From: Candidatus Rifleibacteriota bacterium
GTDB taxonomy: Bacteria > Muiribacteriota > Ozemobacteria > Ozemobacterales > Ozemobacteraceae
DNA: 64,000 bases
Reading direction: 5' to 3'
Assembly (NCBI GenBank): GCA_015233565.1
Contig: JADFXM010000043.1
Coordinates: 44-64,043, forward strand
Positions 32,831-54,269 of the stretch are shown piece by piece. The translations under genes and the position numbers were made by a program. Each line of letters begins with the position of its first letter. Positions within the stretch are counted from its first letter, which is position 1. The notes below the pieces were generated by a model that searched no databases, was not told the origin of the DNA, and saw nothing but the letters and a program-made list of their open reading frames with translations.

Positions 32831-32997
32831 TTTTGGGCACACCAAAGGATCTATTTCGTAAATCTTTTGGATCAATCGGGCCCAGAAGCTGTGAAAAAAT
32901 ACCAAAAATCGGAAGAAAATCCAAGTGCTAAATGTCACAAACGACTGTTGGCGGGGTTATTCTGTAGTAATGGGTTGACAGCAATTAAGAGTTAAAA

Positions 32998-33036
32998 ATC
33001 CCCATAATCCCAATGAAGGATTGCGGGGATTTTTTC
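32998..33036 (+). terminator. Intrinsic terminator at the end of the ilv operon
   Basis: Imperfect stem-loop atcccc-at-aatcc[caatgaa]ggatt-gc-ggggat followed by tttttcttttt. Confidence 0.6.
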
Positions 33037-33074
33037 TTTTTCTGTTCGCGGTGGGCTAAGTACATACAAGAAAA

Positions 33075-33315
33075 AATATGCTTTAATTCGAAGTTCCAAA
33101 CGTGGTACATTGATAGAGCTCTGATGGAGCAGTGCAAGAAGGTGAAATTCGCGTTAATCAAAAAAGGACCCTGTCCATGTGAACCTTTGGATGTTCTCTT
33201 GAGATCATGATCTTCAAGGCATTACATGGACAGTTTTTTTTGGTGAAAAATAGGCTCAAACAATCATCCTACTTGTGCTTTATGCCATTTTAGACTTGGA
33301 ACTTCGGTTTAATGG
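33075..33315. repeat. ~240-bp repeat (family D), left copy of an inverted pair
   Basis: Its reverse complement is about 90-95% identical to 46488-46730. It contains a 10-bp inverted repeat ctgtccatgt...acatggacag (33171-33233) that encloses the palindrome gatcatgatc, flanked by an A-run and a T-run. Confidence 0.8.
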
Positions 33316-33413
33316 AAAGCTTGTTTTCTGCATCATTTTTTTGAAAGCATACAAGCAAAAAAAAGATTGAGCACAAATTAACTACGCTCAATCCCTCAAA
33401 TTGTGGGGAAATT

Positions 33414-33571
33414 ATACCAATCCCAAAAAATATGTGCATCACCCCAAGAACATTGATTTGATCAAAATGAAGTTGGATCGGTATATTTTCTGTATTTTCC
33501 AAGAAAACACGAAACTTTCATGAAAATAAGAGGCCCTTAGTGGATGGTTGAAGCATTCATTTCCGTCAGAC
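33414..33571. repeat. Dispersed repeat family C copy
   Basis: Direct match of about 85% to 63843-64000, the end of the window. The ORFs 33290..33502(-) and 63737..63922(-) lie in the two copies and are probably non-coding. Confidence 0.7.
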
Positions 33572-34019
33572 CCAACTTCAATTTCCTCAGACCTGAAGCA
33601 CGAATTAGGTCGGATGAGCGAACTAATTTAAATTGGTATTATATATGAAAAACCGCAGTAAATCAATATCTGAATATGTAAAATTGATTTTTATTACTTT
33701 GAAAACAACAAGAAAAAATTTTTTTTGGCTCGGTCAAAGCTATCTGAATTGGCGATGAACACGTTTTCGACAATCCGGTACAATTTCTGTCCAGTTAGAA
33801 AGAATCCGTGTCCCGAAGCTCCTTTTTTCTCCTTCCTAGTTCAACCCTCAGAAACAGTTTTTGGCTTCTTATTATAGAACCGGTTAAATTTCTGGATGTA
33901 AAATGTAAATATATATAATTTACATATTTTTCTTCATTTTTACTCCACAAAATCGATAATTTTTGTGATTTGTTAATTTAATTTTTTATATTTTCATGCA
34001 AGAGCCGAAAATTTACTCT

Positions 34020-34048
34020 TGACATATTTTTACTGAATAGGTTAAATT
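34020..34048 (+). promoter_or_regulatory. Candidate sigma-70-like promoter upstream of amt
   Basis: TTGACA-N17-TTAAAT, about 70 bp upstream of the amt start codon, in an AT-rich leader. Confidence 0.35.
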
Positions 34049-34120
34049 CGCTTGCACTAAATTTTCTATTACAGTTTTGATTTTTTTGTAAGTTTTCAAT
34101 TTTTTTTTCGGGAGAAAGAT

Positions 34121-35338
34121 ATGGCAACAAGCTTTAATTCAGGGGACGCCGCCTGGGTTCTCACGTCTTCAGCTTTAGTTTTATTAATGACACCAGGGTT
34201 ATCGTTTTTCTATGGAGGGATGGTTTCCAAGAAAAATGTAATTTCCACCATGTTTCAAAGTTTTATTTCAATGGGAATCACAAGTTTATTGTGGGTGATA
34301 TTCGGTTTTAGTCTGGCTTTTGGTGACAGTATCGGTGGATTCATTGGAAATCCCACAACTTTTTTCATGTTTAAAGGTGTAGAAGGCATTCCCAATGGTG
34401 CTTTTGCGACAACTATTCCTTTTGCTCTTTTTGCATTGTTTCAATTAAAATTTGCAATCATTACTCCCGCCCTTGTTACAGGTGCGTTCGCAGAAAGAGT
34501 AAAATTCAAAGCTTACATGATATTCATTGTTCTTTTCAGTACCCTGATTTATGCTCCAATCGCTCATTGGACTTGGCACCCTGATGGTTTTTTAAGAAAA
34601 TGGGGTGTCCTTGATTTTGCTGGTGGAACTGTGGTCCACATGTCAGCCGGTATTGCGGCTTTGGTGGCCGCCTGGATTTTTGGTCAAAGAAGTGCTGTTA
34701 TAGAAGATCCCAGCCATAGCCACGAACCGGCAAATATCCCCTATATACTTCTAGGGACCGGTATGCTTTGGTTTGGTTGGTTTGGATTTAATGGCGGTTC
34801 TTCCCTGGCAGCTACCGATGTGGCCGTGACCGCATTTTTAACAACCAATACAGCTTCAGCAGCTGCGATGCTAATGTGGCTTCTGATTGAAGTCCTGAGG
34901 GGAAATCAACCCTCAGCCATGGGGGCTTGCATCGGCGCCGTTGTGGGATTAGTAGCAATTACCCCAGCAGCTGGTTATGTAACTATTGGACACTCAATGA
35001 TCATTGGTGCCATTGCATCTTTTGCAAGTTACTATGCCGTAAAAATAAGCTCTAGAACTAACCTGGATGACACGTTGGATGTTTTTTCATGTCATGGTAT
35101 AGGCGGAATAACAGGAATGATATTAACTGGAATATTTGCAAAAAATGTTGGATTAATTTATGGGGAGTCAAGAACTTTCCTGTATCATCTACTAGCTGTT
35201 ATTATTGTGGGAGTTTACACCTCCGTAATGAGTTATATTTGTTTTAAAATCGTGGATGCTCTTATCCCGCTCCGAGTTAGTAAGGAGGAAGAAGACCAAG
35301 GACTGGATTTATCTCAACATGGTGAAGTTTACGCATAA
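34121..35338 (+). CDS. amt: Ammonium transporter (Amt family)
   Basis: 405 aa, 11-TM. The Amt N-terminus is conserved (DAAWVLTSSALVLLMTPGLSFFYGGMV). No adjacent P-II gene. Confidence 0.95.
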   Translation: MATSFNSGDAAWVLTSSALVLLMTPGLSFFYGGMVSKKNVISTMFQSFISMGITSLLWVIFGFSLAFGDSIGGFIGNPTTFFMFKGVEGIPNGAFATTIPFALFALFQLKFAIITPALVTGAFAERVKFKAYMIFIVLFSTLIYAPIAHWTWHPDGFLRKWGVLDFAGGTVVHMSAGIAALVAAWIFGQRSAVIEDPSHSHEPANIPYILLGTGMLWFGWFGFNGGSSLAATDVAVTAFLTTNTASAAAMLMWLLIEVLRGNQPSAMGACIGAVVGLVAITPAAGYVTIGHSMIIGAIASFASYYAVKISSRTNLDDTLDVFSCHGIGGITGMILTGIFAKNVGLIYGESRTFLYHLLAVIIVGVYTSVMSYICFKIVDALIPLRVSKEEEDQGLDLSQHGEVYA

Positions 35339-35497
35339 CTTTTTATTTTTCTGAATTAATAGTATTTGAGAAGTGGGAAATAGACCGGTGTTCAGGTCCG
35401 GAATCGGAAGGAAAAGTGTGCCGGGGAGCATCTAAGAAAGAATAACCTTCCCGAGTTCAACTGCCCTTCTCCGGGCAATCAGAATCAGAAAACCGTT

Positions 35498-35546
35498 AAA
35501 ATGCAGATGGAGTCGAAGAGCACAGTCTCGACTCCATCTGCATTTT
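35498..35546. terminator. Bidirectional intrinsic terminator between amt (+) and the aro operon (-)
   Basis: Perfect 19-bp stem aaaatgcagatggagtcga / tcgactccatctgcatttt with an 11-nt loop, A-run on one side and T-run on the other. Confidence 0.65.
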
Positions 35547-35717
35547 GGCAAGGGCTCTCCGAAATAACCTCTTAGCATGCTATGAGGCAAATTTCAACAA
35601 AAAAGGACAATACTCATGAAACCCGAGCATCAAGAATGGCTCGGTAAAATGTGGAGAATACTTGATCAAGCAACAGATGTGTCTTTAAAAAACAATAACA
35701 CGTTTGGTTACTAAGAC

Positions 35718-37079
35718 TCACCAACAAAGTTGAAACGCTAGTTCCAACGCCTGGCTGGCGTTCAACCGCGGGTCGCAAAGCGTAACATAATTGCCGGCTG
35801 CAAGGTTCTCCTCGGTGATCTCCTGATCACCCCCCGTGCATTCAACGACATCACGGCCAGTCAGTTCGAAATGCACACCACCGGCGTATGTTCCTTCGCT
35901 CTTGTGAATGTCAAAGAACTTCCGGACTTCGGCGAGTATATTCTTGAACGGCCGGGTCTTGAAGCCATTAGGCGCCACGACCGTATTTCCGTGCATCGGA
36001 TCGCAGCACCAGACGACATTCCGACCTTCACGACGTATGTGTCGAATTAACGTGGGCAAAGCCTTTTCAATCGTTTGATATCCCATTCTGGTTATGATAG
36101 TCAAGCGACCGGGATCGTTATCGGGGTTCAGGATATCGATCAGCTGCAGTAGCTCTTCCGAGGTGATACTGGGGCCGCATTTCAAGCCGATCGGGTTCCC
36201 CACTCCCCTCAGAAACTCCACGTGGGCGCCATCCGGTTGCCGGGTGCGTTCACCGATCCATAACATATGGGCTGAGCAGTCATACCAGTCACCTTCGTAA
36301 CCATGCGCCGGTCGTGCGGTGGTGCTGTCCCTTCGGGTCAATGCCTGTTCGTAATTTAGCAACAACGCTTCGTGCGAGGTATAGTATTCCACGACGCGGA
36401 TTTGGGGACTTGTTTCGGCCGTGATTCCGACCGCAGACATGAAGCCCAAGATCTCGTCCAAGCGGTTCGCGATGCTTTCGTATTGCGTCGACTGCGTGCT
36501 GCGTTTGACGAAATCCAGATTCCAATGATGAACCTTATGAAGATCGGCGTAACCACCATAAGCAAAAGCGCGAAGCAGATTGAGCGTCGAGGCCGCCTGG
36601 GAGTAAGCCCGTAGCATGCGCCCTGGCTCCGCCACGCGGGCGTCGCCATCGAATTCATAACCGTTTATTATATCGCCACGGTAGCTGGGCAAAGTAACGC
36701 CATCGCGGCTCTCGGTATCACCGGACCGTGGTTTCGCGAATTGCCCCGCCATCCGCCCGACTTTCACGACCGGCACCTTCTGCCGGAACATCAGAATTAC
36801 CGCCATCTGTAATAGGACACGAAACGTGTCACGGATGGTATTAGCGTTGAAGTCATCAAAACTTTCCGCACAGTCCCCTCCTTGAAGCAAAAACGCACGA
36901 CCCTGGCAGACCTTCGCCAGTCGCTCCTTAAGCTGTCGTGCTTCTCCGGCGAAAACCAACGGCGGGTACTGCGACAACTTCCGTTCCACGCAAGCTAAAT
37001 CCTTACTATCCGGATAAACGGGCACTTGTTGAATTCTTTTCTTCCGCCAGCTTTCGGGCGTCCAGATGATATTATTCAT
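35718..37079 (-). CDS. aroG: 3-deoxy-D-arabino-heptulosonate 7-phosphate synthase, class II (plant/actinobacterial type)
   Basis: 453 aa with the characteristic class II length and N-terminus (WTPESWRKK...VPVYPD...QGGDCAESF). Last gene of the high-GC operon. Confidence 0.9.
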
Positions 37080-37390
37080 GAAACTTGCTTTCCTTTTTTC
37101 CGGGATTGGCGTTGAATTCTCAAAGACTCAGAATGGATCAGCCGCAGCAATGCACTAACGAAACGCTGGTCGAGCCCTAGGCTCATGGCCCAGTCAGAAC
37201 GGGTCGCAACCACTTCCTCCCATCGCGCCTTTTGAAAAGACCCCAGACTAATGGCTTCTTTCTCAACAATTATCTCATGCACTGCCGAGAAACGATCGGC
37301 CAACGCCCGTAGCAGACGTCGGTCGGCAGCATCCACACGTCTACGAAGCTTGCCAAGTCGAGCCTCTGGTGAAGTAGTCAAAGATCTCAT
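37076..37390 (-). CDS. Chorismate mutase (AroQ-class, monofunctional)
   Basis: 104 aa, all-helical. The segment [19 protein letters not shown] is CM_2-like. Start and stop overlap the neighbouring genes. Confidence 0.7.
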
Positions 37391-38256
37391 CGACGGTTTC
37401 CTCCATCGGGAGTTTGAATACGCGTCAGTATTCTACCTATTTCGTTGGCCTGTTCCATCAGACCGCGTGTCCGCCGCCCTTCCACCAGGCTTTCACGAAA
37501 ATCCTGGAGGTGCTCAATGTATGAGTCCAAGGCGGCTGTCACATTACTTAAATTCTGGCGGAAGATAGGCGCCCACATATCCGGCGAACTTTTGGCCAGA
37601 CGGACGGTAGACTCAAAACCGCCGCTAGCGAGGTCAAAAATAGTCGCGGTGTTTTTTTCCTGGTCCAGTACGGTGTTAGCCAGAACAAAGGAACTAATGT
37701 GCGACAGATGACTGACAAAAGCCACATGTAGATCGTGCGCCATCGAGGTCATGTAGACCAGACGCATTCCCAGCACGGAATACATTTTTTCTACACGCTG
37801 CAAATGCTGGAGGTCACTCGCATCCCGGTTGCAAATCACAGCAACGCGCTGGTCAAAAAGTCCCTGCAAAGCAGCACTGGGCCCGGAGTGTTCCGTTCCT
37901 GCCATTGGATGCGCCGGGACGAATTGGCGTCTTCTGAAATGTCCTTCCACGGACTTGCAGATCAGATCCTTGGTCGAACCCACGTCAGTGACCGTAGCGT
38001 TTCCGGAGGCCAGCTCAAGTACACGGGGGAGGGTTTCGAGAATAGCGTCGACCGGCAACCCCAGTATGATCAGATCCGCAGAAGGCACAGCCGCTTCGAG
38101 CGGCAGAACCTCGTCAACGAGCGAAAGCTCAAGCGCTTTATCGGCATGTTCCCGAGAAACGTCCGAACCCAAAATCCGTCGGGCAAACCCGCGTGCACGC
38201 AGGTCCAATCCAATGGAACCACCGATCAATCCCAAACCAATAATTGCTACTTTCAT
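37387..38256 (-). CDS. tyrA: Prephenate dehydrogenase
   Basis: 289 aa. Rossmann N-terminus MKVAIIGLGLIGGSIGLDL and a TyrA-type catalytic domain. Confidence 0.85.
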   Translation of the reverse strand: MKVAIIGLGLIGGSIGLDLRARGFARRILGSDVSREHADKALELSLVDEVLPLEAAVPSADLIILGLPVDAILETLPRVLELASGNATVTDVGSTKDLICKSVEGHFRRRQFVPAHPMAGTEHSGPSAALQGLFDQRVAVICNRDASDLQHLQRVEKMYSVLGMRLVYMTSMAHDLHVAFVSHLSHISSFVLANTVLDQEKNTATIFDLASGGFESTVRLAKSSPDMWAPIFRQNLSNVTAALDSYIEHLQDFRESLVEGRRTRGLMEQANEIGRILTRIQTPDGGNRR

Positions 38257-38265
38257 ATCAACCTT

Positions 38266-39441
38266 TCAGGCCAACCTTCTCAGGGCTTCGGATAGTCGCT
38301 CGCGAGAAGCACATAACGACGCACGCGCATACCGGATGCCATTCGATCCAAAGACCATGCCAGGCGTGAAAAATATGTGCCGGGACTCCAGCAGCTCGTC
38401 AAAAAAAACTTCGACATCGGGAATCGCTTCTGGCGCACGGGCCCAAACGAAAAGACCCACCTGCTTCCGATCATAGCTGAACCCCAACCGGTCGAAAATC
38501 CGCCAGACCAACTCGCGGCGTTCCTGATAGATCTCATTTCGTGCGCGATGCCAATCATTGTCTGTCGCCAATGCGGCAACCGCACCATGCTGCACGGGGA
38601 GAAACATTCCGGAATCGACGTTGCTTTTCACCCGCAGAGTAGCATCGATCACTTCTTTCTCCGCCAAAAGAAGCCCGACCCGCCAACCGGCCATGTTGAA
38701 GGACTTACTAAGCGAGTTGAGTTCCGCACAAAACGGCGATCCGCCCGCGCATCGTAACAGACTAAGCGGCGAACTTTGGTTCAAAACCAAACCGTATGGA
38801 TTGTCGTTGCAGAGCAAAATACGACGCTTCCAACAGAATTCCGCCAGAGCATGAAAAGCACCTTCCACACCGCTCGCTCCCGTGGGCATATGCGGATAGT
38901 TGATCCACATCAATTTGCACCCTCCGAGATCCTGGCGTTCAAGCTCCTTGATATCCGGCAACCAGGCATTCGCTTCGCTCAAATTGTACCGATGAACCCT
39001 CGCACCCAATAACCGCGCTGCTGAAGAGTAGGCAGGGTAGCCGGGATCGGGTATAAGTACACCATCTCCTGGATTCAGCAACCCCATCGAAAGATAGAAA
39101 ATTCCTTCTTTCGATCCCAGCAGGGGAAGAAGCTGGCTTTCAGGATCGACGGAAACAGAATATGTGCGCTCATACCAATTCGCCATAGCGACACGAAGCT
39201 CCGGAGTCGATCTGTATGATGCATAACCGTGATTATTTCCGCACGCCAGTGACGATGAAGCAGCTTCGACAGCCCGAGGCGGCGGAGGTAAATCAGGACT
39301 TCCGATTCCGATATTTATGACGTCATGACCTTTGGCACGCAGTTGACGGATCAACTCAAGCTTGCGCGAAAAGTAATACTCGGTAACCTCGCTCAACCGA
39401 TCGGCAAATTGGATGCTTACAACCATGGACGATCTCCACAC
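38266..39441 (-). CDS. Class I/II pyridoxal-phosphate aminotransferase (probable aromatic/prephenate aminotransferase)
   Basis: 391 aa. Motifs NYPHMPTG and SKSFNMAGWRVG (the PLP lysine region). Embedded in the Phe/Tyr operon. Confidence 0.8.
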   Translation of the reverse strand: MWRSSMVVSIQFADRLSEVTEYYFSRKLELIRQLRAKGHDVINIGIGSPDLPPPPRAVEAASSSLACGNNHGYASYRSTPELRVAMANWYERTYSVSVDPESQLLPLLGSKEGIFYLSMGLLNPGDGVLIPDPGYPAYSSAARLLGARVHRYNLSEANAWLPDIKELERQDLGGCKLMWINYPHMPTGASGVEGAFHALAEFCWKRRILLCNDNPYGLVLNQSSPLSLLRCAGGSPFCAELNSLSKSFNMAGWRVGLLLAEKEVIDATLRVKSNVDSGMFLPVQHGAVAALATDNDWHRARNEIYQERRELVWRIFDRLGFSYDRKQVGLFVWARAPEAIPDVEVFFDELLESRHIFFTPGMVFGSNGIRYARASLCASRERLSEALRRLA

Positions 39442-40256
39442 CGATATTCTCCGAACTGGACTAAATTCAAAGCCATATCAGGCAACTCAGCCAAAGCCGC
39501 CAAGTATTGCGCACGGTCATTCCATTCAATATCCACATGAAAAGAATACTTATAAGGCTTGCCGAGGACTGGCACCGATTGAATTTTGGTCAGATTGATA
39601 GCGTGACGGCTGAAAATCCCTAGAATCGCGGACAAACTGCCAGGTTCATCAGGGGACTCGAAACACAGGGTAGCCTTGTTCGCGCCCTCGGGAACCAAAT
39701 AATCCTCCCGTCGACAGATAGCCAGAAATCTGGTGTAATTCTGGCGATTTGACTCTATTCCCTCACGCAGAAGTTCAAGGCCATAGGTTTGCGCGGCCAA
39801 CCGACTAGCGATGGCGGCATACCCCCGTAGGCCCTTGTCTCCGATATGTTTCGCGCTTTCTGCGGTGTCCGCGGCTTCCAGGATTTTCATTCCCGGAAAA
39901 CCGGAAAGAAATTCATCGCACTGGGCGAGGGCCATGGGGTGTGATTGTACAAACTTAATCTCGGAAAGCTGTTGTCCGGGTAATGCTAACAGACACATTT
40001 CAATCCGCAAGTAGATCTCCCCGAGAATGCAGAAATCATGATTTTTCAATAAGGAGTAATTAGGAAGAATGCTGCTGGCGATCGAATTTTCGATGGCCAT
40101 CATACAAACATCCACTTCCTTGCGATCCAGAGTAAGACAAAGCGACTTGAAAGACGCGCACTCAACCGGCTCAATTGACTCGGAAAAATAAGCACGTGCC
40201 GCTACATCATGAAAACAGGCTCGAACGCCCTGAATACCAACCTTACAAGACTTCAT
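39417..40256 (-). CDS. pheA: Prephenate dehydratase (PDT + ACT domain)
   Basis: 279 aa. A PDT domain followed by a C-terminal ACT-like region. Its start overlaps the aminotransferase gene. Confidence 0.85.
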
Positions 40257-41359
40257 AAACGCGCACCCCGATTTCTGAGAAAATGATCAGCGATAGTGAT
40301 GGCAGCCATCGCTTCAACGATCGGCACTGCCCGCGGCACCACGCACGAATCATGGCGTCCACGCCCAGGCAGCACCGTAGTTTGCCCTTGCCTATCCAAC
40401 GTTGTCTGTGATTTGAGCAAGGTCGCGACAGGTTTGAAGGCGACCCGAAAATCAATATCCATACCATTGCTAATGCCACCTTGAATACCCCCCGAATGGT
40501 TAGTGCTCGTTTCGGTTCGCTCCCCAACGCGCACAAAAAGATCATTATGCTCGGAACCGCGCAACGACACGCCACTAAAACCCGAGCCATATTCAAACCC
40601 TTTGACGGCATTGATACTCAGCATCGCTTTTCCGAGATCCGCATGCAATTTATCGAAAACCGGATCCCCCAAGCCTACCGGACAACCCCGAATGATGCCG
40701 TTGACAACTCCACCGGTGGTATCACCGTCCTTTTTCAGTGCTTCGATGAATTCTATTATTTTTGCAGCCGTCCCGGGGTCAGGGCATCGCGTAATGTTAG
40801 TCTCTGAGAACGCATCCATAAATTGTTTGTCGGCGAATAACTTATCGGCCAACATCGCATCGTGGGGCATAGATATCCGGCCGACCTGTGAAACATAGGC
40901 TCTAATCGCGACATTGAATTCCCCTAGCAAGAGCTTTGCCACTGCACCTGCGGCAACTCTCGCGGCAGTCTCACGAGCAGAGGAACGCCCACCCCCGAAA
41001 TGATCCCGCACCCCATATTTCTTTTCATAAGTGAAATCCGCGTGCGAAGGCCTATACGCATCGCCATTATGCGAGTAATCATCTGGCCGCTGGTCTTCAT
41101 TAATGATCAGAGCGGTCAGAGGCGTCCCAGTCGTCCGACCTTCAAAAAGTCCGGAAACAAACCGAACCCTATCAAGTTCGTTGCGCGAAGTGGTCAACTT
41201 TGATTGTCCCGGCCGACGGCGATCAAGCTCCGATTGCACGAACCCCAGATCGACCGCCAATCCAGCCGGACAACCGTCGATAACAACTCCAATCAGTTCA
41301 CCATGTGACTCTCCGAAAGTGGTTACTCGAAATAGCTGTCCGAAAGTATTTCCTGCCAT
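40253..41359 (-). CDS. aroC: Chorismate synthase
   Basis: 368 aa. N-terminus [18 protein letters not shown] and other conserved AroC blocks. Confidence 0.95.
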
Positions 41360-41362
41360 TTT

Positions 41363-41812
41363 CTAGTCCTTCTTTTCGAGCAATAACTCAAGAGCGTTCG
41401 CATAGGAAAGCCAGCCCAAACCAGAAATCTGTGCAAGACAAACCGGTGCGATAACTGACACCTGACGGAAACTCTCGCGTTTTTTTATATCACTGAGGTG
41501 AACCTCGATCGTCGGCACCGCAATTGCCGCAACGGCGTCTCTCAGCGCGTAGGAATAATGTGTATACGCACCGGGATTGAATACCACGCCATCGGCCCAC
41601 CGCCGGTTTTTGTGCAAAAGGTCAATCAGCGTGCCCTCGCTGTTAGATTGGTGAATTCTAAGGATGCAACCATGAGATCTGGCATTGGCACGCAGTTTTC
41701 TGTTTATTTCAGCGAGCGTCAAAGTACCATAGACATCGGGTTCACGTTCGCCCAAAAGATTCAAATTTGGACCGTGCAAAATCAAGATACGCCGATCACT
41801 TTCGTTCCTCAT
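41363..41812 (-). CDS. aroQ: 3-dehydroquinate dehydratase, type II
   Basis: 149 aa, with ILILHGPNLNLLGEREP...HQSNSEG. Confidence 0.9.
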   Translation of the reverse strand: MRNESDRRILILHGPNLNLLGEREPDVYGTLTLAEINRKLRANARSHGCILRIHQSNSEGTLIDLLHKNRRWADGVVFNPGAYTHYSYALRDAVAAIAVPTIEVHLSDIKKRESFRQVSVIAPVCLAQISGLGWLSYANALELLLEKKD

Positions 41813-42945
41813 TTTAATCCTCCAATGAGCTTCAGGGCAGATCGAAGATGCCGCCTGTTGATATTACCATCCGTTTTCACGCGCCCTGCCCTTCCGTCCA
41901 AGAGCACAAAATGAAGCTTCCCACCGCGGTTCTTTTTGTCCTTGGACATTATAACATGAAGTTCTTCTAGCGTAATCCCTGCCGGCAGAGCGGGTATTTC
42001 CAACCGCGCGAGGGTCGAATCCAAGTCCATTCTTTTTTTGGAACTCAGCAATCCCCGGACTTCAGAAAGGGCCAAAGCAAAACGCATGCCCCAAATTATC
42101 GCTTCACCGTGCTGGAACATCTTATATTGCGTGATGCTCTCCAGGGCATGGCCGAAGGTGTGGCCAAAATTAAGCACCTCACGAATCCCCAAGCGATCAA
42201 GTTCGTCTTGCGCTACTACACTGCATTTCCATTCAAGCGACCGCTGTATGGCTGGACCGAGCAGCAAAGCATCGCGAGCCAAAAGCCGCTCGAGATTTTT
42301 ATCAAGACTTCGATAAAACGCAGGATCGAATACCAATCCGTATTTCAGTATTTCACCTAAACCGGAGACAATTTCCCGACGCGACAGGGTCGAAAGGAAA
42401 TTCAAATCACAAATCACCCCATCCGGTTGATGAAAGGCGCCAATCAAATTTTTGCCCGAAACATGATTTATTCCAGTTTTGCCACCCACGGCGCTGTCGA
42501 CCTGCGCGAGGAGCGTCGTCGGAACACCGATCCAGGAAATACCGCGCAGATAAGTCGCCGCAACAAAACCGGCCGCGTCTCCGACGGTCCCTCCACCCAG
42601 AGCAAAAAGAACCGAGTGGCGGTCCGCCCCGTGTTTAAGCAGTTCACCATACAAACTATTGATCGAGGAAATTTCCTTGAGGGACTCTCCTGCCTGAACG
42701 GGAATCTCATGCACCTTCCAACCCGCACCCCGCAGCGCTTTTCGCAACGATGACATTGCGTCAATCAGGATCTCGTCATAGACCACAAAAGCCCGAGCCA
42801 GATTGCCAGATCGTCCGTCAACCTTTTTGAACAACTCTATCGCTCCAGCGCCAATAAGGATGTCATAAGATCGGCTCACCGCGGACGCTTTTCCGAAAAA
42901 CTGTTTGACCCGACAGAACGGTGAATGAACAGATTTGAAAATCAT
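41809..42945 (-). CDS. aroB: 3-dehydroquinate synthase
   Basis: 378 aa. NAD-binding GGGTVGD and metal-binding His residues of the DHQS family. Confidence 0.9.
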   Translation of the reverse strand: MIFKSVHSPFCRVKQFFGKASAVSRSYDILIGAGAIELFKKVDGRSGNLARAFVVYDEILIDAMSSLRKALRGAGWKVHEIPVQAGESLKEISSINSLYGELLKHGADRHSVLFALGGGTVGDAAGFVAATYLRGISWIGVPTTLLAQVDSAVGGKTGINHVSGKNLIGAFHQPDGVICDLNFLSTLSRREIVSGLGEILKYGLVFDPAFYRSLDKNLERLLARDALLLGPAIQRSLEWKCSVVAQDELDRLGIREVLNFGHTFGHALESITQYKMFQHGEAIIWGMRFALALSEVRGLLSSKKRMDLDSTLARLEIPALPAGITLEELHVIMSKDKKNRGGKLHFVLLDGRAGRVKTDGNINRRHLRSALKLIGGLK

Positions 42946-44381
42946 GAAAATTCCCCCTCTTCGGTCAAACGAATTATCACAGCCGCTACCGCGTTAGGCT
43001 CAAGATTGTCGGTTTGGACACGATGGGATGCGCGCAGGTAAATCGCCTGCCGTGCTTTTACCAGATTTTCAAGCCTGGAGTCCACCGAAATCTGACCGTC
43101 GGATTTTGCTGGCGACAAAAGCGGCCGAACCTTCAGCTCATTTTCGCTGACCTGGAGCCGTCGGACCAGGGCCGATGTCTTGGCCTCCAGATACACAAGG
43201 ATTCCAGACCTCTCGACAGCTGCCAAGGTTCCGTCAGTCATGAGCGCCCCTCCACCGAGAGCTACAACTGTCCTAGTCCGCGCGGCCGAGTTTAAGACAG
43301 CTTTCTTTTCAAGAACGCGAAAAGCCTGTTCGCCTTGCTGTTCAAAAATCTCGCTAACCGATAACCCACTCTCTGCTTCTACAAGGCAATCCGTGTCGAC
43401 AAAATCCCAGCCAAGACGTTGGGCTAGAATAGAGCCAACGGTGCTCTTGCCGGCTCCCATGGGACCACAAAGAAAAATCGGGGGGGCGAGGGCTCGACGT
43501 AACTCCGGCATGATTGATGGAAGAATTTCTCCTAATGACTCTGAAGTCGAGTTCGTCCAGATTTTCCAACTCTCAATCGCTTGGTGCACCAGCATGTCAA
43601 GACCTGCCACGCAACGAAAGCCAAGATGGCTCGCCAGCGAAAGAAACGGCGTCCGCTCGGGATTGTAAATCAAGTCAAAAGCAAGCGCGTCGGGTTCCGG
43701 TGAAATCCGTGCCAATCCGGAAAAAAACTCTGAGGTTGCGTTAATGTCCCCCTCCATGGCATATCCTCGCATGCCAACAGGTGTGGTGTTAACAACCAAG
43801 CCCACTCGAGTCAAAACGGCGGGCACAACCCCATAAAAGCGCGTCTTGGGAAAAAGAGGGGTAAACGCCGATATCAAAGCCTTGGATCGAGCCTGATCAC
43901 GGTTCAATACAGCCACGGATGCAACGTGACGCCAGCCAAGAGCGTGAAGCACCGCCTTGGCTGCTCCCCCAGCTCCCCAGACAACGACGTTACAATCGTG
44001 AAGCTTTATCTTACGATCATCGAGAACCCTAAGGAAACCGATGTAATCAGTATTATGCCCGATAAGCTTACCGTCCTTCAAATGTACCAAGTTGACGGCG
44101 CCAATCGCTCGGGCCTGAACAATGACTTCGTCCAACTCGGCCAGTATAGCTTCTTTATGGGGCACGGTCACGTTGATGCCGACAAACTCTGGGCAGCATC
44201 GCAGCTCATCGAGATAAGTGCGAAGATCACGGGGCAAAACCTCGACAGCGGAATAAGTGAAATCGCGCATGCCTAGACGTTCGGCCAGAATCAAATGGAG
44301 CACCGGCGAAAGGGAATGAGAAATCGGATTCCCTATTACCGCCCCTTTTAAACCCCCTTTTGTTCCACTCATGGCCGGCAA
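42942..44381 (-). CDS. aroE-aroK: Bifunctional shikimate dehydrogenase / shikimate kinase (AroE-AroK fusion)
   Basis: The N-terminal 270 aa are AroE-like (GVIGNPISHSLSP, NVTVPHK, the VVVWGAGGAAKA Rossmann). The C-terminal roughly 190 aa are AroK-like with Walker A IFLCGPMGAGKSTVG and DTD. It is a single ORF. Confidence 0.85.
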   Translation of the reverse strand: MPAMSGTKGGLKGAVIGNPISHSLSPVLHLILAERLGMRDFTYSAVEVLPRDLRTYLDELRCCPEFVGINVTVPHKEAILAELDEVIVQARAIGAVNLVHLKDGKLIGHNTDYIGFLRVLDDRKIKLHDCNVVVWGAGGAAKAVLHALGWRHVASVAVLNRDQARSKALISAFTPLFPKTRFYGVVPAVLTRVGLVVNTTPVGMRGYAMEGDINATSEFFSGLARISPEPDALAFDLIYNPERTPFLSLASHLGFRCVAGLDMLVHQAIESWKIWTNSTSESLGEILPSIMPELRRALAPPIFLCGPMGAGKSTVGSILAQRLGWDFVDTDCLVEAESGLSVSEIFEQQGEQAFRVLEKKAVLNSAARTRTVVALGGGALMTDGTLAAVERSGILVYLEAKTSALVRRLQVSENELKVRPLLSPAKSDGQISVDSRLENLVKARQAIYLRASHRVQTDNLEPNAVAAVIIRLTEEGEFS

Positions 44382-45667
44382 AGCCTTTCAAGTGTAGCGA
44401 AAAATTCCGGATAGGAAATTCCGACGCATTCTGCGTCATGAATCGTGGTATCCCCTTCTGCCACCAGTCCGGCGATGCTGAAGGCCATCGCGATCCGGTG
44501 ATCATGAAAACTACGAATATCCGTGCCGCGAAGGGACTGCCTACCCGCGAGCGTGAAGCCATCTTTCCGAGTCTCGATGCTGGCACCCATGGCACGAAGA
44601 TTGACAGCAACCGCTTCAATACGGTCACTTTCCTTCACACGCAGCTCTTCGGCACCTTCGACGACGGTCTCGCCGACCGCCTGACTTGCAAGCACCGCAA
44701 GCATAGGCAACTCGTCGATCAGCGCCGGTATCTCGGACACAGTTACGCGAATTCCTTTCAGATTACTAAAACGGGCCTCGATACAACCGACTGGCTCAGG
44801 AACTTCCGATTCAAGCTCGACAACAATATTAGCACCCATTCGCTGCAGGGCACGAATGAATCCGATGCGAGTGAAATTTAATGAGATGTTTTCAAGCCGC
44901 AAATGAGCACCTGGCACTAAACACGCGGCAGCCAGCCAAAACGCTGTGGCAGAGGGATCGCCAGGAACCAGGACTCGATTAGCGACAAGAGTTTGACCAC
45001 CCGTAATGCTTAATTCGCTCGAACTTTCCTGTAGTTTTGCTCCGAAGTGTCGAAGCATTCTTTCCGTGTGATCGCGGCTGTCGATCTGGCCTGTGATACG
45101 AGTCACACCCTCGGCCAATAACCCGGCCAAAAGTACTGCGGTCTTAAGCTGCGCGCTGGCTACAGGAAGCGAATAGTTTATTCCATGCAACTTGGAGCCT
45201 TGAATCGTGAGTGGTGCATAATCATCGGCGGTCAATTCTATCCGCGCACCCATCAAAAGCAAGGGCGCGGCCACCCGACGCATTGGGCGCCTAACCAACG
45301 ATGCGTCACCAGACAAAGTGGCGGTGATATCGCCACCGGCAAGCACGCCCATGAGCGTGCGAATTGTCGTACCTGAGTTCCCACAATCCAGCACACGCAC
45401 GGGCGATGTGAACCCTTTCACACCCAAGCCTTCTACGGTTGTCAAGGTCGTTCCGTCAGATGCGCCGGAGCGAATTATGGAAACACCGAGATCGCCAAGA
45501 CAACGAGCGGTAGATTGGACGTCTCCGCCAGTTAAGATATTAGTGATTTCGGTCCTGCCCTCGGAAAGAGCACCCAGGATGAGCGCCCGATGCGATATGG
45601 ATTTGTCGCCCGGGATATTTGGTTTACCTCTAAAACAAGCAGCCCTGTGCACAATTTGATTGGCCAT
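44369..45667 (-). CDS. aroA: 3-phosphoshikimate 1-carboxyvinyltransferase (EPSP synthase)
   Basis: 432 aa. Motifs GDKSISHR and LDCGNSGTT. First gene of the operon. Confidence 0.9.
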   Translation of the reverse strand: MANQIVHRAACFRGKPNIPGDKSISHRALILGALSEGRTEITNILTGGDVQSTARCLGDLGVSIIRSGASDGTTLTTVEGLGVKGFTSPVRVLDCGNSGTTIRTLMGVLAGGDITATLSGDASLVRRPMRRVAAPLLLMGARIELTADDYAPLTIQGSKLHGINYSLPVASAQLKTAVLLAGLLAEGVTRITGQIDSRDHTERMLRHFGAKLQESSSELSITGGQTLVANRVLVPGDPSATAFWLAAACLVPGAHLRLENISLNFTRIGFIRALQRMGANIVVELESEVPEPVGCIEARFSNLKGIRVTVSEIPALIDELPMLAVLASQAVGETVVEGAEELRVKESDRIEAVAVNLRAMGASIETRKDGFTLAGRQSLRGTDIRSFHDHRIAMAFSIAGLVAEGDTTIHDAECVGISYPEFFATLERLCRP

Positions 45668-45887
45668 ATTATCATATTTAAGCCTGTTTCATAAAATCCA
45701 AAAATGGCTTTTCCTCTTGTAAATTTTTTTCAGAAACGAAGTTCTGATCCAGGTTGAATTGTACCCGCTTATCAAAAACCGATTATGTAACTGTCTCTCA
45801 GACTGTTTTATTCTTCTTTGGATTACTCAAGATGCTTTTTGAAGTTTTGTATTTTCTTCCGAACTTCAACATCATGGCATGCATGAT

Positions 45888-46196
45888 TTACCGTATCGAC
45901 TTCCTCTGGACTTTTGACCTTTGAAGCGCCTGCAAGAAAAGTTTTATTACTGTTTTCGAATCAATCCGCCTTCTTACAAGTGCCAGAGCATCGATTGTGT
46001 CGTCGGCAAATTTGCCAACTCCAAGCCATATCTGGCCTTGTTTTGAAAGAGTTTGTGCCAATCTGGCACGACTCTGACAATTCAATACACTGATGTTACC
46101 GTTGTGAATCCTTTCGTGAGAATGGGTTTTTAATAAATCTTTCCTCAGCCTTTCTCGCATGGCATATAATTTGTTACTTTGCTGATGTTCCTCCAA
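45888..46196 (-). CDS. Hypothetical 102-aa ORF (possibly a gene remnant) upstream of the aro operon
   Basis: ORF only. No motif recognised. It lies in the AT-rich spacer between aroA and the right inverted repeat. Confidence 0.25.
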   Translation of the reverse strand: MEEHQQSNKLYAMRERLRKDLLKTHSHERIHNGNISVLNCQSRARLAQTLSKQGQIWLGVGKFADDTIDALALVRRRIDSKTVIKLFLQALQRSKVQRKSIR

Positions 46197-46487
46197 AAAA
46201 GAATGTATGAATCCTCTCTGGAGGATTTACATTAGATCCAGCGACCGTGCCTGTTTTTGGGGCAATTCTCCCATCGAGGCTAACAGCAGCTTTTAGAGTG
46301 AGCCGAGGTCGTCCATCTTTGTGGAAAGCAGAGTTCCTAGCGGGTCTTTCCATCAGATTAATGCATCAACGCTCACAATCAGCAATAAATCATCGGCTCC
46401 AAATAAATTTTGGTGGATATTATACTTTACTGATGAATGAAATTCTATACTTTTTTAAATTTTTGTCCAGGAGATTTATGATTCCTA

Positions 46488-46730
46488 AACCGAAGTTCCA
46501 AGTCTAAAATGGCATAAAGCACAGGTAGGATGATTGTTTGAACCTATTTTTCCCAAAAAAACCTGTCCATGTAATGCCTTGAAGATCATGATCCAAAGAG
46601 AACATCCAAAGGTTCACATGGACAGGGTCCTTTTTTGATTAACGCGAATTTCTCCTTCTTGCACTGCTCCAATCACAACTCTATCAATGTACCGCGTTCG
46701 GAACTTCGGCTTAAATGCCGCGTTCCTTTT
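46488..46730. repeat. ~240-bp repeat (family D), right copy (inverted relative to 33075-33315)
   Basis: Reverse-complement match to the left copy, including the internal hairpin cctgtccatgt...acatggacagg flanked by A/T runs. Confidence 0.8.
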
Positions 46731-49404: not shown

Positions 49405-52158
49405 ATGATGGAGAAAATTGAATGCCTGGTAAACTCCGGAGTCTCCTTTTACACTCCGGAAAATGATTTGCAGTTTCCCGACGCATTATTGTTCAAAACC
49501 TGGACATTTCGTGTCTTACAATCCCCAAAAGGCGCCATTTCTCTTCAATTAGGCGCAACTCCAATCATTGATGCCCTTGCCGAAGGGAAAGACCCCCTGA
49601 TCGACATCGGCCAACTTTCTCTTCGGTTTCAGGATGTTTTAAATATTTGTACAGGGAAATGGCTTCCGCTTCCCTTCTCACGTAAGGGAGCGGAAGAATC
49701 GGTTTCACGAAGCAAAGATTGGGTAAGACTTTTCTTGCACAAACCTCCGTTAAAAAACGATGCAAACATTTTTCGGTATGTACTTGCTTTTGACACGCTC
49801 GTCAATTCAACGGAAACTTCTGATAATCCCGGAAGAGATCTTTTGGGATTTTTCCCCGAAGACGTTGGTCTGCCTTTTGAGTTAAACCCAGGCTCAACCG
49901 GATTCTGGCAGACTCCAACTCTTCTAAACTGGATCAAAAACATTTTCAAGGAAATTCCGGCAGAAGGAGCCGATCCAATGCCTCCGCATATCGGAAGTCT
50001 GGCTGCCTTTATGACGCTGGTTGACGGGCTTAAACAGGCAGATATTATCCCAGAGATAACCTTTTTGAATCCTGAAGGCCAAAACATCGACGCTCATTTA
50101 ATTCTTGATCTGGGAAACAGCCGCGCCTGCGGGATTATCGCCGAACAAGCCCCAGGGCAGGGAGTAAATCTCGATGAATGTTGCAAGCTTGAAATTCGAG
50201 ATTTGAGCGAACCTACTCAAACATACACTGAGCCATTTGATACGTCTTTCAAATTCCGCCCTCCGCTCTTTTTTGATCCGAATCAAGGAGCTCCTCACGC
50301 TGGGGCTGGTTTTTTCTGGCCCAGCCTTCTTCGTCTGGGGCGCGAAGCTGCAAACCTGGAACCCTCGGACGTAGGCGACACTGGTATGTCAAGCCCCAAG
50401 CGATATTTATGGGATAACCAGCAACGACATTTTCCCTGGTATTTCAACCTTCCCGAGGCAAACCTCGGCAAAAAAATAAACGCTCCTTTCCTCAAATTCC
50501 TTGACGAAAATGCTGTTTTTCGCGGAGACAAAGCCCAACCCCCATTTGAACCATGTTATCCACCAAGTTCAATGATGGTTTTTTTGATTCTGGAAGTCCT
50601 GAATCACTGTTATTCTCAAATCAATTCGTTTTCATTTCGAAAATCCCGTGGACATCGTCTTTCAAAACGTGTTTTACGGAATATTGTAATCACCACGCCT
50701 TCAGGTATGTCCGGTCCCGAAAGAGATATTTATCGGGAGCGCGCTCAATCGGCCATTGATCTCTATTTCCATGTGTTTGGCTGGCCGGAGGAAATGAAAC
50801 CCAAAATTCATCTTGAGTTTGATGAAGCCACCGCTGTGCAGCTTACATACCTGTATGGTGAAGTGAAACATCGCTTTTTAGGCAACGCCAAAGAAGTATT
50901 CGAAACACTCGGTCGCGAACGCGCCGCTGAACATGATCTTCGCAAACCCATTTTTCGGCTTGCAAGTATTGACATTGGCGGTGGAACGAGCGATTTGATG
51001 ATTGCCGAGTATAATTCATTGCCAGCTGAACCTTCCGGAGCACGTCAGAAAAAACTATTCTCCGAAGGCTTTTCAATAGCGGGCGATGAGATAGCAAAAC
51101 GCATAATCGAAAAGATAATTATTCGCCGCGTTTTTTCATGGGCGCAACAAAAAAATCAAAGAATTTCCTGGGAAGAATTTCAACTCTTCTTCGGCCCAGG
51201 GCGCGGGGGGCGGGACAAACATTTTATAGACATGAAAGCCGAACTCTGCCGCCAGGTCTGGATTCCAATGGCTCATCGCCACCTTGAATTCGCCGAACTG
51301 GAAACGGATGACACCGATTTGGAATTAGGATTCGATCAATTTTTTTTACGACGCTTGCCCGGCGCCAATGTGCTCGATTTCTTCGCGGAACACCTGAAAA
51401 AGGAATTTGACTGCGACATCACTCTCCCGGAAATTCCCTGGCAACTTTCGAAACGCCAAATCAATACAGTTATTGCCAATGTTATCGAAAATATTCTTCG
51501 AATTTTTTCCGAAGTAATCGCTCAATTTGATTGTGACGCGCTTATTTTGGGAGGAAAACCCTCGTCCTTACCAATCATTCGAGAGATTCTTGTGCGCCTG
51601 ATGCCCGTATCGCCGGAAAAAATCATCAGTTTGAAAGGATACCCGGTTGGAAGCTGGTACCCATTTTCCCAAAAAGGCGGAGGAATCTCCGACCCCAAGA
51701 CCACATGCGTCATGGGAGCCGCGGTCTGGTTGTTTTCAGAAAAACTGCGAAACCTCGACGGGTTGAACTTGATCACTGACCCCGACTCCATACAGGAACG
51801 GAAATGTTTCATTGGAACATTTTCTCCCGAAGATTTGAAAATTGACCAAATGGTCTTTCCCTCCGCTAACGGCGTTGTTGAAACGAATAAATCAGCTCTT
51901 TTGGGAATACGCCGTGTCGATTCAGAAGTTTGTCCAGTCAACCCAATTTGGGAGTTACTTCTTGATCGCGAAAACCTTAAAGGACAAGGTCCCTTCAAAG
52001 TCAAACTCGTACAGGATCCCAAACAGCGTGAGTGTTTGTCAATTGAAGGGCTCGAAGATGAGCGAGGAACGAAAGTTGACTCGCGTTTGGCGAAACTCAG
52101 GCTTCGCACCATGATAGCCGATCAATATTGGCTCGACACTGGTTCTTTCGATTTGTAA
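49405..52158 (+). CDS. Large (917 aa) Hsp70/actin-fold ATPase-domain protein
   Basis: Hsp70-NBD-like motifs in the canonical order: phosphate-1 HLILDLGNSRACGII, connect-1 IVITTPSGMSGPERDIYRERAQ (compare VITVPAYFNDSQRQATKDA), phosphate-2 ASIDIGGGTSDLMIAEY, adenosine DALILGGKPSSLPIIREIL. A roughly 230-aa N-terminal extension is unique. Confidence 0.8.
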   Translation: MMEKIECLVNSGVSFYTPENDLQFPDALLFKTWTFRVLQSPKGAISLQLGATPIIDALAEGKDPLIDIGQLSLRFQDVLNICTGKWLPLPFSRKGAEESVSRSKDWVRLFLHKPPLKNDANIFRYVLAFDTLVNSTETSDNPGRDLLGFFPEDVGLPFELNPGSTGFWQTPTLLNWIKNIFKEIPAEGADPMPPHIGSLAAFMTLVDGLKQADIIPEITFLNPEGQNIDAHLILDLGNSRACGIIAEQAPGQGVNLDECCKLEIRDLSEPTQTYTEPFDTSFKFRPPLFFDPNQGAPHAGAGFFWPSLLRLGREAANLEPSDVGDTGMSSPKRYLWDNQQRHFPWYFNLPEANLGKKINAPFLKFLDENAVFRGDKAQPPFEPCYPPSSMMVFLILEVLNHCYSQINSFSFRKSRGHRLSKRVLRNIVITTPSGMSGPERDIYRERAQSAIDLYFHVFGWPEEMKPKIHLEFDEATAVQLTYLYGEVKHRFLGNAKEVFETLGRERAAEHDLRKPIFRLASIDIGGGTSDLMIAEYNSLPAEPSGARQKKLFSEGFSIAGDEIAKRIIEKIIIRRVFSWAQQKNQRISWEEFQLFFGPGRGGRDKHFIDMKAELCRQVWIPMAHRHLEFAELETDDTDLELGFDQFFLRRLPGANVLDFFAEHLKKEFDCDITLPEIPWQLSKRQINTVIANVIENILRIFSEVIAQFDCDALILGGKPSSLPIIREILVRLMPVSPEKIISLKGYPVGSWYPFSQKGGGISDPKTTCVMGAAVWLFSEKLRNLDGLNLITDPDSIQERKCFIGTFSPEDLKIDQMVFPSANGVVETNKSALLGIRRVDSEVCPVNPIWELLLDRENLKGQGPFKVKLVQDPKQRECLSIEGLEDERGTKVDSRLAKLRLRTMIADQYWLDTGSFDL

Positions 52159-52174
52159 TTTTCAGGAGGGCATC

Positions 52175-52900
52175 ATGAACAAACCTGATGAACTGTTTCC
52201 ATTTCCTCCGTTCCCACTGGAAAAAAAAGAAGGTCCCCCCACCCCCTTGAACCCAGATGAAATAAGGGATCTTCGAACTATTCTTGAATTATTCCGCAGT
52301 GGAAAATTGACAAGCCCCCCTGTCACAGCCCCCCAGGAAAAGGCTGATGTGGACCCTTTCGCCGAACTTCCCACCAATATGAGTCAACCCATCCCGACGA
52401 CCCTGCCTCGTTCTGAGGAATTTGTAATGCGCAGCGCCTTCATGAAATTTCTCGATATCAGAACATCATCATCCCCATTAGAGGATGAAATTCGAAATTC
52501 ATTAAAAGCAATTTGCCAAAACTTGGAAGATCAACACACTTTTGTACAAGCTTTTTGCGCCATAGTTGGAATCTTTCCAATATGTGATTTCTTACGTCAC
52601 AGCACTCCGGAACAAAAAATGTTTTCCCTAAACTCTCTTGGAGACAGGTTTTTTCAAGTAATTAGCGGAATGAGGTTTCCACTGCGAAAGGAACTTGTCA
52701 AAATCATCGGAAAATATCTTTCTGATAGTTCAACGAACTATTCTTTCCTCTCAATGGAAGGAGAGCCTTTCAATAATCAATTTCACGAACGGGTTGATGG
52801 AAGCTCTTCTTCTGGCCGTTCGATCGTTGAAATGCGAGGGTTTGTCGTCACGCGGATAAATTCCGACCAAATTGTACGCCTGGGGCGCGTTCTAACTTGA
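52175..52900 (+). CDS. Hypothetical 241-aa protein (speculatively GrpE-like nucleotide-exchange-factor C-terminus)
   Basis: Tightly coupled in the operon. The C-terminal segment SIVEMRGFVVTRINSDQIVRLGRV loosely follows the GrpE beta-domain pattern (G.VL.I.QKGY.LNGR.IR.A.V.V). Confidence 0.5.
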   Translation: MNKPDELFPFPPFPLEKKEGPPTPLNPDEIRDLRTILELFRSGKLTSPPVTAPQEKADVDPFAELPTNMSQPIPTTLPRSEEFVMRSAFMKFLDIRTSSSPLEDEIRNSLKAICQNLEDQHTFVQAFCAIVGIFPICDFLRHSTPEQKMFSLNSLGDRFFQVISGMRFPLRKELVKIIGKYLSDSSTNYSFLSMEGEPFNNQFHERVDGSSSSGRSIVEMRGFVVTRINSDQIVRLGRVLT

Positions 52901-52913
52901 AAGGCGGGTAACC

Positions 52914-54266: not shown

Positions 54267-54269
54267 AAT

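Follow-up and report, generated by a model that had tools for sequence, protein, structure and literature searches.

Origin of a GC-rich aromatic amino acid operon and of the inverted repeats that bracket it in a metagenome contig labelled Candidatus Riflebacteria

A 64-kb stretch of DNA, referred to below as the window, from an NCBI metagenome-assembled genome (MAG) labelled Candidatus Riflebacteria bacterium (proteins MBF0546948-62) carries a ten-gene operon for aromatic amino acid synthesis whose guanine plus cytosine (GC) content stands above that of the DNA around it, and a pair of inverted repeats of ~231 bp which enclose this operon together with the neighbouring ammonium transporter gene amt. 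The question that this locus raises is whether the operon came from another lineage and, if it did, whether the repeats are the borders along which it came. Whole-operon horizontal acquisition is the best-supported reading of composition and genome comparison, and most likely two separate things, a GC-rich operon and a repeat pair, happen to lie together. For the joint reading, in which the operon was acquired horizontally as one piece and the repeats are separate insertions resembling MITEs (miniature inverted-repeat transposable elements) rather than its borders, we would put the chance somewhat above even.

Content and composition of the operon

The minus-strand block at 35718-45667 is exactly one translationally coupled operon for aromatic amino acid synthesis, in which ten genes are tightly packed with stop and start codons overlapping or nearly abutting, and all ten were matched to NCBIfam families in a profile search. 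The genes, given in operon order, are as follows.

44369-45667, minus strand: aroA, 5-enolpyruvylshikimate-3-phosphate (EPSP) synthase, with which the operon opens (TIGR01356, 400 bits, cutoff 287)
42942-44381, minus strand: aroE-aroK fusion, shikimate dehydrogenase plus shikimate kinase (aroE families at residues 11-281, shikimate kinase families at 297-474), a fusion also present in related loci
41809-42945, minus strand: aroB, 3-dehydroquinate synthase (TIGR01357, 334 bits against a cutoff of 305)
41363-41812, minus strand: aroQ, type II 3-dehydroquinate dehydratase (NF003807, 194 bits against a cutoff of 130)
40253-41359, minus strand: aroC, chorismate synthase (NF003793, 451 bits against a cutoff of 321)
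39417-40256, minus strand: pheA, prephenate dehydratase (NF008865, 175 bits, under the cutoff of 219; relatives have PF00800 PDT at that position)
38266-39441, minus strand: class I/II aminotransferase (aat; best matches to LL-diaminopimelate (LL-DAP) and aspartate aminotransferase families, all under their cutoffs)
37387-38256, minus strand: tyrA, prephenate dehydrogenase (NF006307, 341 bits against a cutoff of 295)
37076-37390, minus strand: chorismate mutase (CM), CM_2 type (CM families are matched weakly; related loci have PF01817 CM_2 as the syntenic gene)
35718-37079, minus strand: class II 3-deoxy-D-arabino-heptulosonate-7-phosphate (DAHP) synthase, with which the operon ends (TIGR01358, 685 bits, cutoff 615; GC 54.1%, 61.5% at third codon positions)

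The operon spans all seven steps of the shikimate pathway and adds chorismate mutase, prephenate dehydratase, prephenate dehydrogenase and an aminotransferase, which makes up every step from erythrose-4-phosphate and phosphoenolpyruvate (PEP) to phenylalanine and tyrosine. Because its position among the operon genes is conserved, the aminotransferase is presumed to have aromatic amino acids or prephenate as its substrates.

The GC content of the operon was 52.4% in comparison to 41.5% for the window minus the operon, an offset of +10.9 points. The ten aro genes range from 48.6% to 54.1%, the highest 1-kb window reaches 54.9% and a few 100-bp windows reach 57% to 58%, while the other genes of the window range from 35% to 50%. 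A first-pass annotation of this DNA had described a block of 60% to 63% GC in surroundings of 35% to 40% (38% for the genome); the anomaly it pointed to is real, but its excess over the surroundings, given as about +22 points, had been overstated about two-fold, and the surroundings are neither as low nor as uniform as described. On the layout the same annotation was accurate. The extent of the minus-strand operon stands as it was given, and the abrupt transitions placed at 35.7 and 45.7 kb were found on the first and last codons of the operon block (in 100-bp windows, a rise from 0.36 to 0.51-0.57 at 35.7 kb and a fall from 0.54 to 0.39 at 45.6 kb). The composition of amt is native-like, as had been stated, with a GC content of 42.0%, a GC content at third codon positions (GC3) of 34.0% and a codon-usage distance of 0.248 to the background in comparison to 0.485 to the aro genes.

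Third codon positions show this shift most strongly, with a pooled GC3 of 53.6% for the operon and 35.8% for the background (+18 points). Gene by gene, GC3 was 0.47 to 0.62 in the ten aro genes in comparison to 0.32 to 0.48 in 30 other open reading frames (ORFs; Mann-Whitney p = 2e-6), so that the uniform composition which the first-pass annotation had allowed for as a refutation is not the case for either GC3 or codon usage. By a Karlin-type codon-usage distance, the other members of the aro set are closer to each aro gene than the low-GC background is, while amt and all distal genes are nearer to the background than to the aro set; the ilv genes are about equidistant, with ilvB and ilvC marginally nearer to the aro set. 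The composition anomaly is thus real and specific to the ten genes. The GC content of a genome can be related to that of its codon positions by the Muto-Osawa and Lawrence-Ochman regressions. The pooled values of the operon (GC1 59.3%, GC2 44.2%, GC3 53.6%) fit a genome of ~51% to 53% GC, and the background GC3 fits a genome of ~40% GC.

The operon in other genomes and its probable origin

The ten-gene colinear operon recurs in a series of other loci (L001, L003/L004, L005, L009, L012, L014, L017, L019, L020, L032, L091 and L092), that is, in Bdellovibrionota loci and in unnamed metagenome contigs, where the ten-gene order usually has trpB-trpA in front. The comparison showed that in ten other genomes spanning 36% to 60% GC the GC content of the operon exceeds that of its flanks by only 0 to +3 points, with L003 (+6.8) and L013 (+8.5) as exceptions, and that the offset of +10.9 in the window is larger than in any of the ~20 loci where the operon lies beside usable flank. 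Similarly, when the operon was compared with its own flank by GC-normalised tetranucleotide correlation, the values were 0.84 to 0.95 elsewhere and 0.76 in L003, in comparison to 0.79 in the window. Since the GC content of the operon elsewhere tracks that of its flanks, high GC is not intrinsic to these genes and the window is an outlier. The raised operon GC in L003/L004 (ENA / NCBI metagenome) and in L013 (a Bdellovibrio sp. MAG) may point to further operon transfers.

In the Bdellovibrionota-type trp/aro operon (L001, L003, L005, L009, L012, L017) the order is trpB-trpA-aroA-aroEK-aroB-aroQ-aroC-pheA-aat-tyrA-CM-class II DAHP synthase. The window shares with it the same order and orientation of the ten genes, the aroE-aroK fusion, DAHP synthase in last place and the overlapping stops and starts. 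It differs in the size of its GC offset, in the Riflebacteria label of the contig and in the region in front of aroA, where trpB-trpA are found in L001, L003, L004 and L005, whereas the window has 0.8 kb of AT-rich, apparently decayed sequence followed by one of the repeat copies, with no trp gene in 45668-46484. A second known arrangement is the Bacillus subtilis aromatic supraoperon, aroFBH-trpEDCFBA-hisC-tyrA-aroE. The two units are alike in joining genes for the shikimate pathway, for tryptophan, for phenylalanine and tyrosine and for an aminotransferase in one long transcription unit, but they differ in gene order and in the class of DAHP synthase, and the B. subtilis unit lacks the full seven shikimate steps.

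For DAHP synthase there are thousands of homologues at 70% to 75% identity, the named ones being Bdellovibrionota. Among GTDB species representatives, loci of Bacteriovoracaceae, Oligoflexia, Pseudobdellovibrionaceae and Bdellovibrio came at 67% to 73%, followed by Alphaproteobacteria, and there was no Riflebacteria-labelled locus in the best 80. Protein identity to the best whole operons (L091, L092, L001) was 35% to 77% over the whole length, and the nearest operon relatives tend to sit in contigs of 50% to 59% GC (L001, L091, L092, L009, L012), consistent with the donor composition inferred from the codon positions. All five window proteins tested were singletons at 90% identity in a collection of 15 billion proteins, which means that no close relative has been sampled, and no syntenic relative of the window was found; the neighbourhood of the best NCBI match of amt is without synteny. 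By these comparisons the operon is placed in the Bdellovibrionota-type family, and none of the sampled lineages appears to be the donor. The search for a donor lineage which the first-pass annotation had proposed has thus led to the nearest named relatives, but to no close donor among them.

Two MAGs labelled Elusimicrobia and Elusimicrobiaceae (L021, L022) carry aat, tyrA and a class II DAHP synthase which are 51% to 70% identical to those of the window. These genes match their flanks in GC content (65% and 57%) and are nested among Bdellovibrionota in the DAHP synthase tree, so that they may represent another inter-phylum transfer or a binning or label error.

The features which flank the operon are needed to follow how it may have arrived.

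34121-35338, plus strand: amt, ammonium transporter (Pfam Ammonium_transp, E = 4.6e-121)
35503-35541, no strand assigned: strong hairpin GCAGATGGAGTCGA...TCGACTCCATCTGC between amt and the DAHP synthase gene, which converge on it, read from the sequence, probably their shared terminator
45668-46484, minus strand: AT-rich region of 817 bp upstream of aroA (GC 33% to 42%), with an ORF of 102 aa at 45888-46196 that has no family match

A frame-broken stretch at 46200-46330 (minus strand) within the last of these encodes GRPRLTLKAAVSLDGRIAPKTG and has a weak match to the N-terminal part of RibD_C (E = 0.055, below threshold), and the region may hold the remnant of a gene that was disrupted or decayed at the junction.

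Horizontal acquisition is favoured because the shift in GC3 and codon usage is coherent and confined to the ten genes while the same operon elsewhere mostly matches its flanks, and because Bdellovibrionota are the nearest named relatives of an operon whose contig bears a Riflebacteria label. From composition and genome comparison, we infer that a genome of ~40% GC would have taken up the operon as one piece from a donor of ~50% to 55% GC, and that the operon would have landed between amt and a now-decayed gene, where it has retained a donor-like GC3 and codon usage. As to timing, the only argument for a recent event is that codon-position GC still fits a genome of ~51% to 53% GC, a weak sign of amelioration; the first-pass annotation had proposed recent acquisition, of which acquisition is the best-supported part while "recent" is unproven, the closest operons being only 60% to 77% identical in protein.

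Several observations weigh against acquisition. The assignment of the host to Riflebacteria is that of the submitter's label, in a window which holds no marker genes, and the best named matches of amt are Myxococcota and Oligoflexia. There is no close donor, the best relatives being only 60% to 77% identical in protein. In a concatenated alignment of AroA, AroC, the aminotransferase and DAHP synthase (1577 columns), the window operon is 60% to 67% identical to the Bdellovibrionota-type operons, about as distant as these are among themselves (59% to 75%). The neighbor-joining (NJ) placement of the window operon had less than 50% bootstrap, and the NJ trees from DAHP synthase alone and from the four concatenated proteins were both star-like, with no supported sister group for the window. 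At the operon junctions we found no integrase, tRNA or direct repeat; the whole window is without tRNA, no integrase or transposase domain was found in its 64 kb, and among direct or att-like repeats only chance 7-9-mers link the two junctions. Finally, at 0.79 the tetranucleotide correlation falls only a little short of the native range and is similar to that of gltBD (0.77) and ilv (0.81), which are also GC-elevated, and the glt, ilv and srf clusters of the window likewise exceed the baseline (GC 44% to 50%, GC3 0.40 to 0.48).

The last of these points, together with the lack of a close donor and of mobility genes or att-like repeats, speak also for an operon that is native and vertically inherited, its GC content having been raised by selection (on amino-acid composition, or through expression-linked codon bias) or reflecting a regional heterogeneity in which anabolic genes are GC-richer. 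We regard this as unlikely, although it retains some credit. It would be at odds with the ten genomes of 36% to 60% GC in which the operon stays within 0 to +3 points of its flanks with signature correlations of 0.84 to 0.95, and it does not fit easily with a shift that is largest at GC3 (53.6% against 35.8%) and confined exactly to the ten genes, next to a fully native amt.

If the operon was acquired, it would be like a classical genomic island in forming a discrete, sharply bounded block whose GC and codon usage are atypical and in holding a complete functional module, and unlike one in having no tRNA, integrase or flanking direct repeats and in its content, which is core anabolic and not accessory. 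Operon transfer, incomplete amelioration and intergenic MITE pairs are each already well documented, so that current understanding is unchanged. If the transfer is real and cross-phylum, it would provide a clean case in which all ten genes of a primary-metabolism pathway moved together in a single operon; the aromatic prototrophy of this MAG may then be acquired and not ancestral, which matters for its metabolic annotation, and caution would be called for in composition-based binning.

The inverted repeats and their relation to the operon

The two repeat copies, their terminal inverted repeats and their internal hairpins are located as follows.

33083-33312, plus strand: left repeat copy, ~231 bp, intergenic between ilvC and amt (93.5% to 94% identity to the right copy)
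46485-46714, minus strand: right repeat copy, inverted, between a racemase-like gene and the upstream region of aroA (from the alignment with the left copy)
33083-33099, plus strand: terminal inverted repeat of the left copy (TTAATTCGAAGTTCCAA), with its partner at 33296-33312 (TTGGAACTTCGGTTTAA; 17-mer search)
46698-46714, minus strand: terminal inverted repeat of the right copy, with its partner at 46485-46501 (17-mer search)
33171-33233, plus strand: internal hairpin of the left copy with a 10-bp stem, preceded by an A6 run (33160-33165) and followed by a T8 run (33234-33241)
46563-46625, minus strand: internal hairpin of the right copy, with the same stem

These coordinates are from the end-to-end alignment; the repeat search gave arms at 33082-33311 and 46486-46715. 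The copies are identical at 216 of 231 positions (93.5%; 93.9% by blastn), within the 90% to 95% that the first-pass annotation had estimated for the inverted repeats bracketing the segment, and the longest identical run between them is 57 nt. Homology stops sharply at both ends, at the terminal inverted repeats: each copy is bounded by its own pair of ~17 bp, TTAAnnCGAAGTTCCAA ... TTGGAACTTCGGTTTAA, and the element end reads ...CGAAGTTCCAA. With up to 3 mismatches allowed, the 17-mer TTGGAACTTCGGTTTAA occurs in the window only at the four copy ends (4 against 0.5 expected; 0 of 100 shuffles reach 4). The hairpin stem CTGTCCATGT...ACATGGACAG encloses the palindrome GATCATGATC, with an A6 run before it and a T7-T8 run after it in both copies, just as the earlier description had it, and the whole element folds at -70.4 kcal/mol (z = -3.4). 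In the orientation of the element the flanks read TTTAA...TTTAA on the left and TTTAA...TTTAG on the right, with a palindromic TTAA core that is identical in both copies. Coding capacity is limited to chance ORFs of at most 70 aa, and no Rfam match was obtained for the whole window at gathering thresholds or for 32950-34150 at E up to 1.

Because of this anatomy, i.e., small size, lack of an ORF, terminal inverted repeats at the ends of homology, TTTAA-type flanks and intergenic sites, the repeats look like two copies of a non-autonomous MITE-like element. The two copies would have been inserted independently, one downstream of ilvC and the other downstream of the racemase-like gene. Correia elements of Neisseria are MITEs with terminator-like hairpins. 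The repeat is similar to Correia-type elements in being ~230 bp long, non-coding and intergenic, and in having terminal inverted repeats, a short AT-rich flank repeat and an internal hairpin, and it shares these traits with the bacterial MITEs with terminator-like hairpins reviewed in PMC10969869. It is unlike the described families in having no sequence similarity to them, no Rfam match, two copies only and no identified parent insertion sequence (IS) or transposase. The repeat is a candidate for a new family of MITEs, in a phylum of which little is known. The A6-hairpin-T8 module resembles a bidirectional intrinsic terminator, and by analogy the hairpin could terminate or stabilise transcripts. 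The gene ilvC has a terminator-like hairpin of its own (AATCCCC...GGGGATTTTTT) at 33005-33045, just upstream of the left copy, so that the hairpin of the element would be a second, redundant terminator-like structure there.

The assignment to MITEs has its own counterevidence. The TTAA flank could be part of the terminal repeat or a target preference and not a target-site duplication. Further or degenerate copies were found neither in the 64-kb window nor in the fetched loci, which leaves only two copies known; exact-match scans gave 0 matches for the repeat core in the genome, metagenome and viral contig collections, and 0 matches for the repeat end in metagenome contigs. No parent IS of the element is known, and the 64-kb window holds no transposase.

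With respect to the operon, the repeats lie 2.4 kb (left) and 0.8 kb (right) outside the compositional edges and enclose amt with its native composition. For this reason, and since each copy has the anatomy of a separately inserted MITE, the repeats are not the borders of transferred DNA, and the suggestion in the first-pass annotation that they mark the integration event was not upheld. Homologous recombination between the 231-bp copies is a possible route by which the 13.2-kb amt-aro segment could be inverted, and no sign that it did invert was seen in the sequence. A site-specific invertible switch was rejected, as there is no recombinase nearby.

A broader proposal is that 19-46 kb forms a mosaic "anabolic island" to which several transfers, each independent of the others, contributed in a large Riflebacteria genome of low GC; gltBD is 87% and 81% identical to an unrelated lineage of ~47% GC, whose ilv genes are only 34% to 46% identical to those beside gltBD in the window. 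On this proposal the aromatic pathway would have crossed phyla and the MITE pair would make amt-aro an invertible or mobilisable cassette. We consider this doubtful; if it were true, non-autonomous elements could move and re-orient a whole pathway of primary metabolism.

It is also conceivable, but very improbable in our view, that a composite MITE-bounded transposon brought amt and the aro operon as one unit, with the repeats marking the integration. Inverted copies of one element do bracket a 13.2-kb cargo, and units of this kind that move cargo are documented: 439-bp MITEs surround the blaPER-1 integron (PMC3934969), and the TIME-COMPs are MITE-bounded composite units (PMC4133298, PMC13367494). 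As in those systems, two copies of one MITE flank a multi-kilobase cargo in the window. In the documented composites, the flanking duplication lies around the unit as a whole and what is carried is accessory or resistance DNA, whereas in the window segment each copy has its own matching TTTAA / TTTAR flanks, as separate insertions would, and no mobilisation is documented. Further, the cargo here is mixed, amt and ~3.2 kb of non-coding DNA inside the bracket being compositionally native and the operon not; the compositional edges are set in from the repeats by 2.4 kb and 0.8 kb; 6.5% of positions are different between the copies; and there is no transposase in 64 kb.

An assembly or binning artefact, by which foreign reads were stitched in or the contig was mis-joined at the repeats, is unlikely, and its share of the probability is slighter still. 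The contig does come from a MAG, and repeats of this kind could confuse a small-k assembler. An inserted chimera would need two false joins that return to the same genome, and both junctions lie in unique sequence, where they match gene boundaries and the shared convergent terminator; the argument of the first-pass annotation that breakpoints in unique sequence speak against a simple chimera holds. The 94%-identical element on either side ties both flanks to one genome, a longest identical run of 57 nt would be resolved by large-k assembly, and a mis-join at the repeats would not give GC steps within DNA that is part native and part foreign.

The least probable of the explanations, with hardly any weight left to it, is that the repeat is a functional RNA or regulatory module which was duplicated upstream of amt and of the aro operon and is not mobile: each copy is oriented as its downstream gene and lies 809 and 818 bp before the start codon, the fold is stable (z = -3.4) and the hairpin with its T run is terminator-like, but no Rfam family was matched even with E values up to 1 allowed, a start codon 800 bp away is a distant one, the inner-hairpin differences between the copies are not compensatory, terminal inverted repeats that coincide exactly with the ends of homology are a feature of transposons, and no homology was found between the 809-bp and 818-bp spacers (global alignment z = 1.3), so that the near-equal distances look like coincidence.

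Other genes of the window

The amt gene was called at 405 aa in comparison to 433 to 492 aa in its homologues and is preceded by 808 bp of non-coding DNA (33313-34120; 31.6% GC) in which short direct and inverted repeats occur; upstream of 34121 there may be the true start or a regulatory region. It has no accompanying glnK/PII gene.

On the plus strand, gltB and gltD (19425-25419) have 87% and 81% protein identity (75% DNA) to contigs of ~47% GC labelled Bacteroidota or Bacteriovoracaceae (L087-L090), where gltBD lies inside an ilvBN-gltBD-ilvC-leuA-type I DAHP synthase cluster. The ilvB, ilvN and ilvC genes of those contigs are only 34% to 46% identical to those of the window, with no synteny beyond gltBD, so that gltBD seems to have a transfer history of its own and gives no host signal.

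At 7772-11120 and 11492-17092 (both minus strand) lie adjacent B12-binding radical-SAM paralogues (534 and 524 aa) beside an ORF of 1866 aa that has no significant Pfam match. An srfABC-like cluster at 49405-56834 (plus strand) comprises SrfB (917 aa, PF07520), a Virul_Fac / SrfC-like protein (854 aa, PF10139) and two ORFs (241 and 450 aa) without family match; with a GC content of 44% to 47% it stands between the baseline and the aro operon. At 58697-61345 (plus strand), a gene of native composition encodes a major vault protein homologue of full length (882 aa; Pfam domains MVP_shoulder and Vault_3). Representative clusters matching it at E up to 0.001 number 1353; hardly any of the top matches bears an organism name that would point to the host lineage, and the best are full-length at 50% to 57% identity, several of them carrying the JGI name 'major vault protein'.

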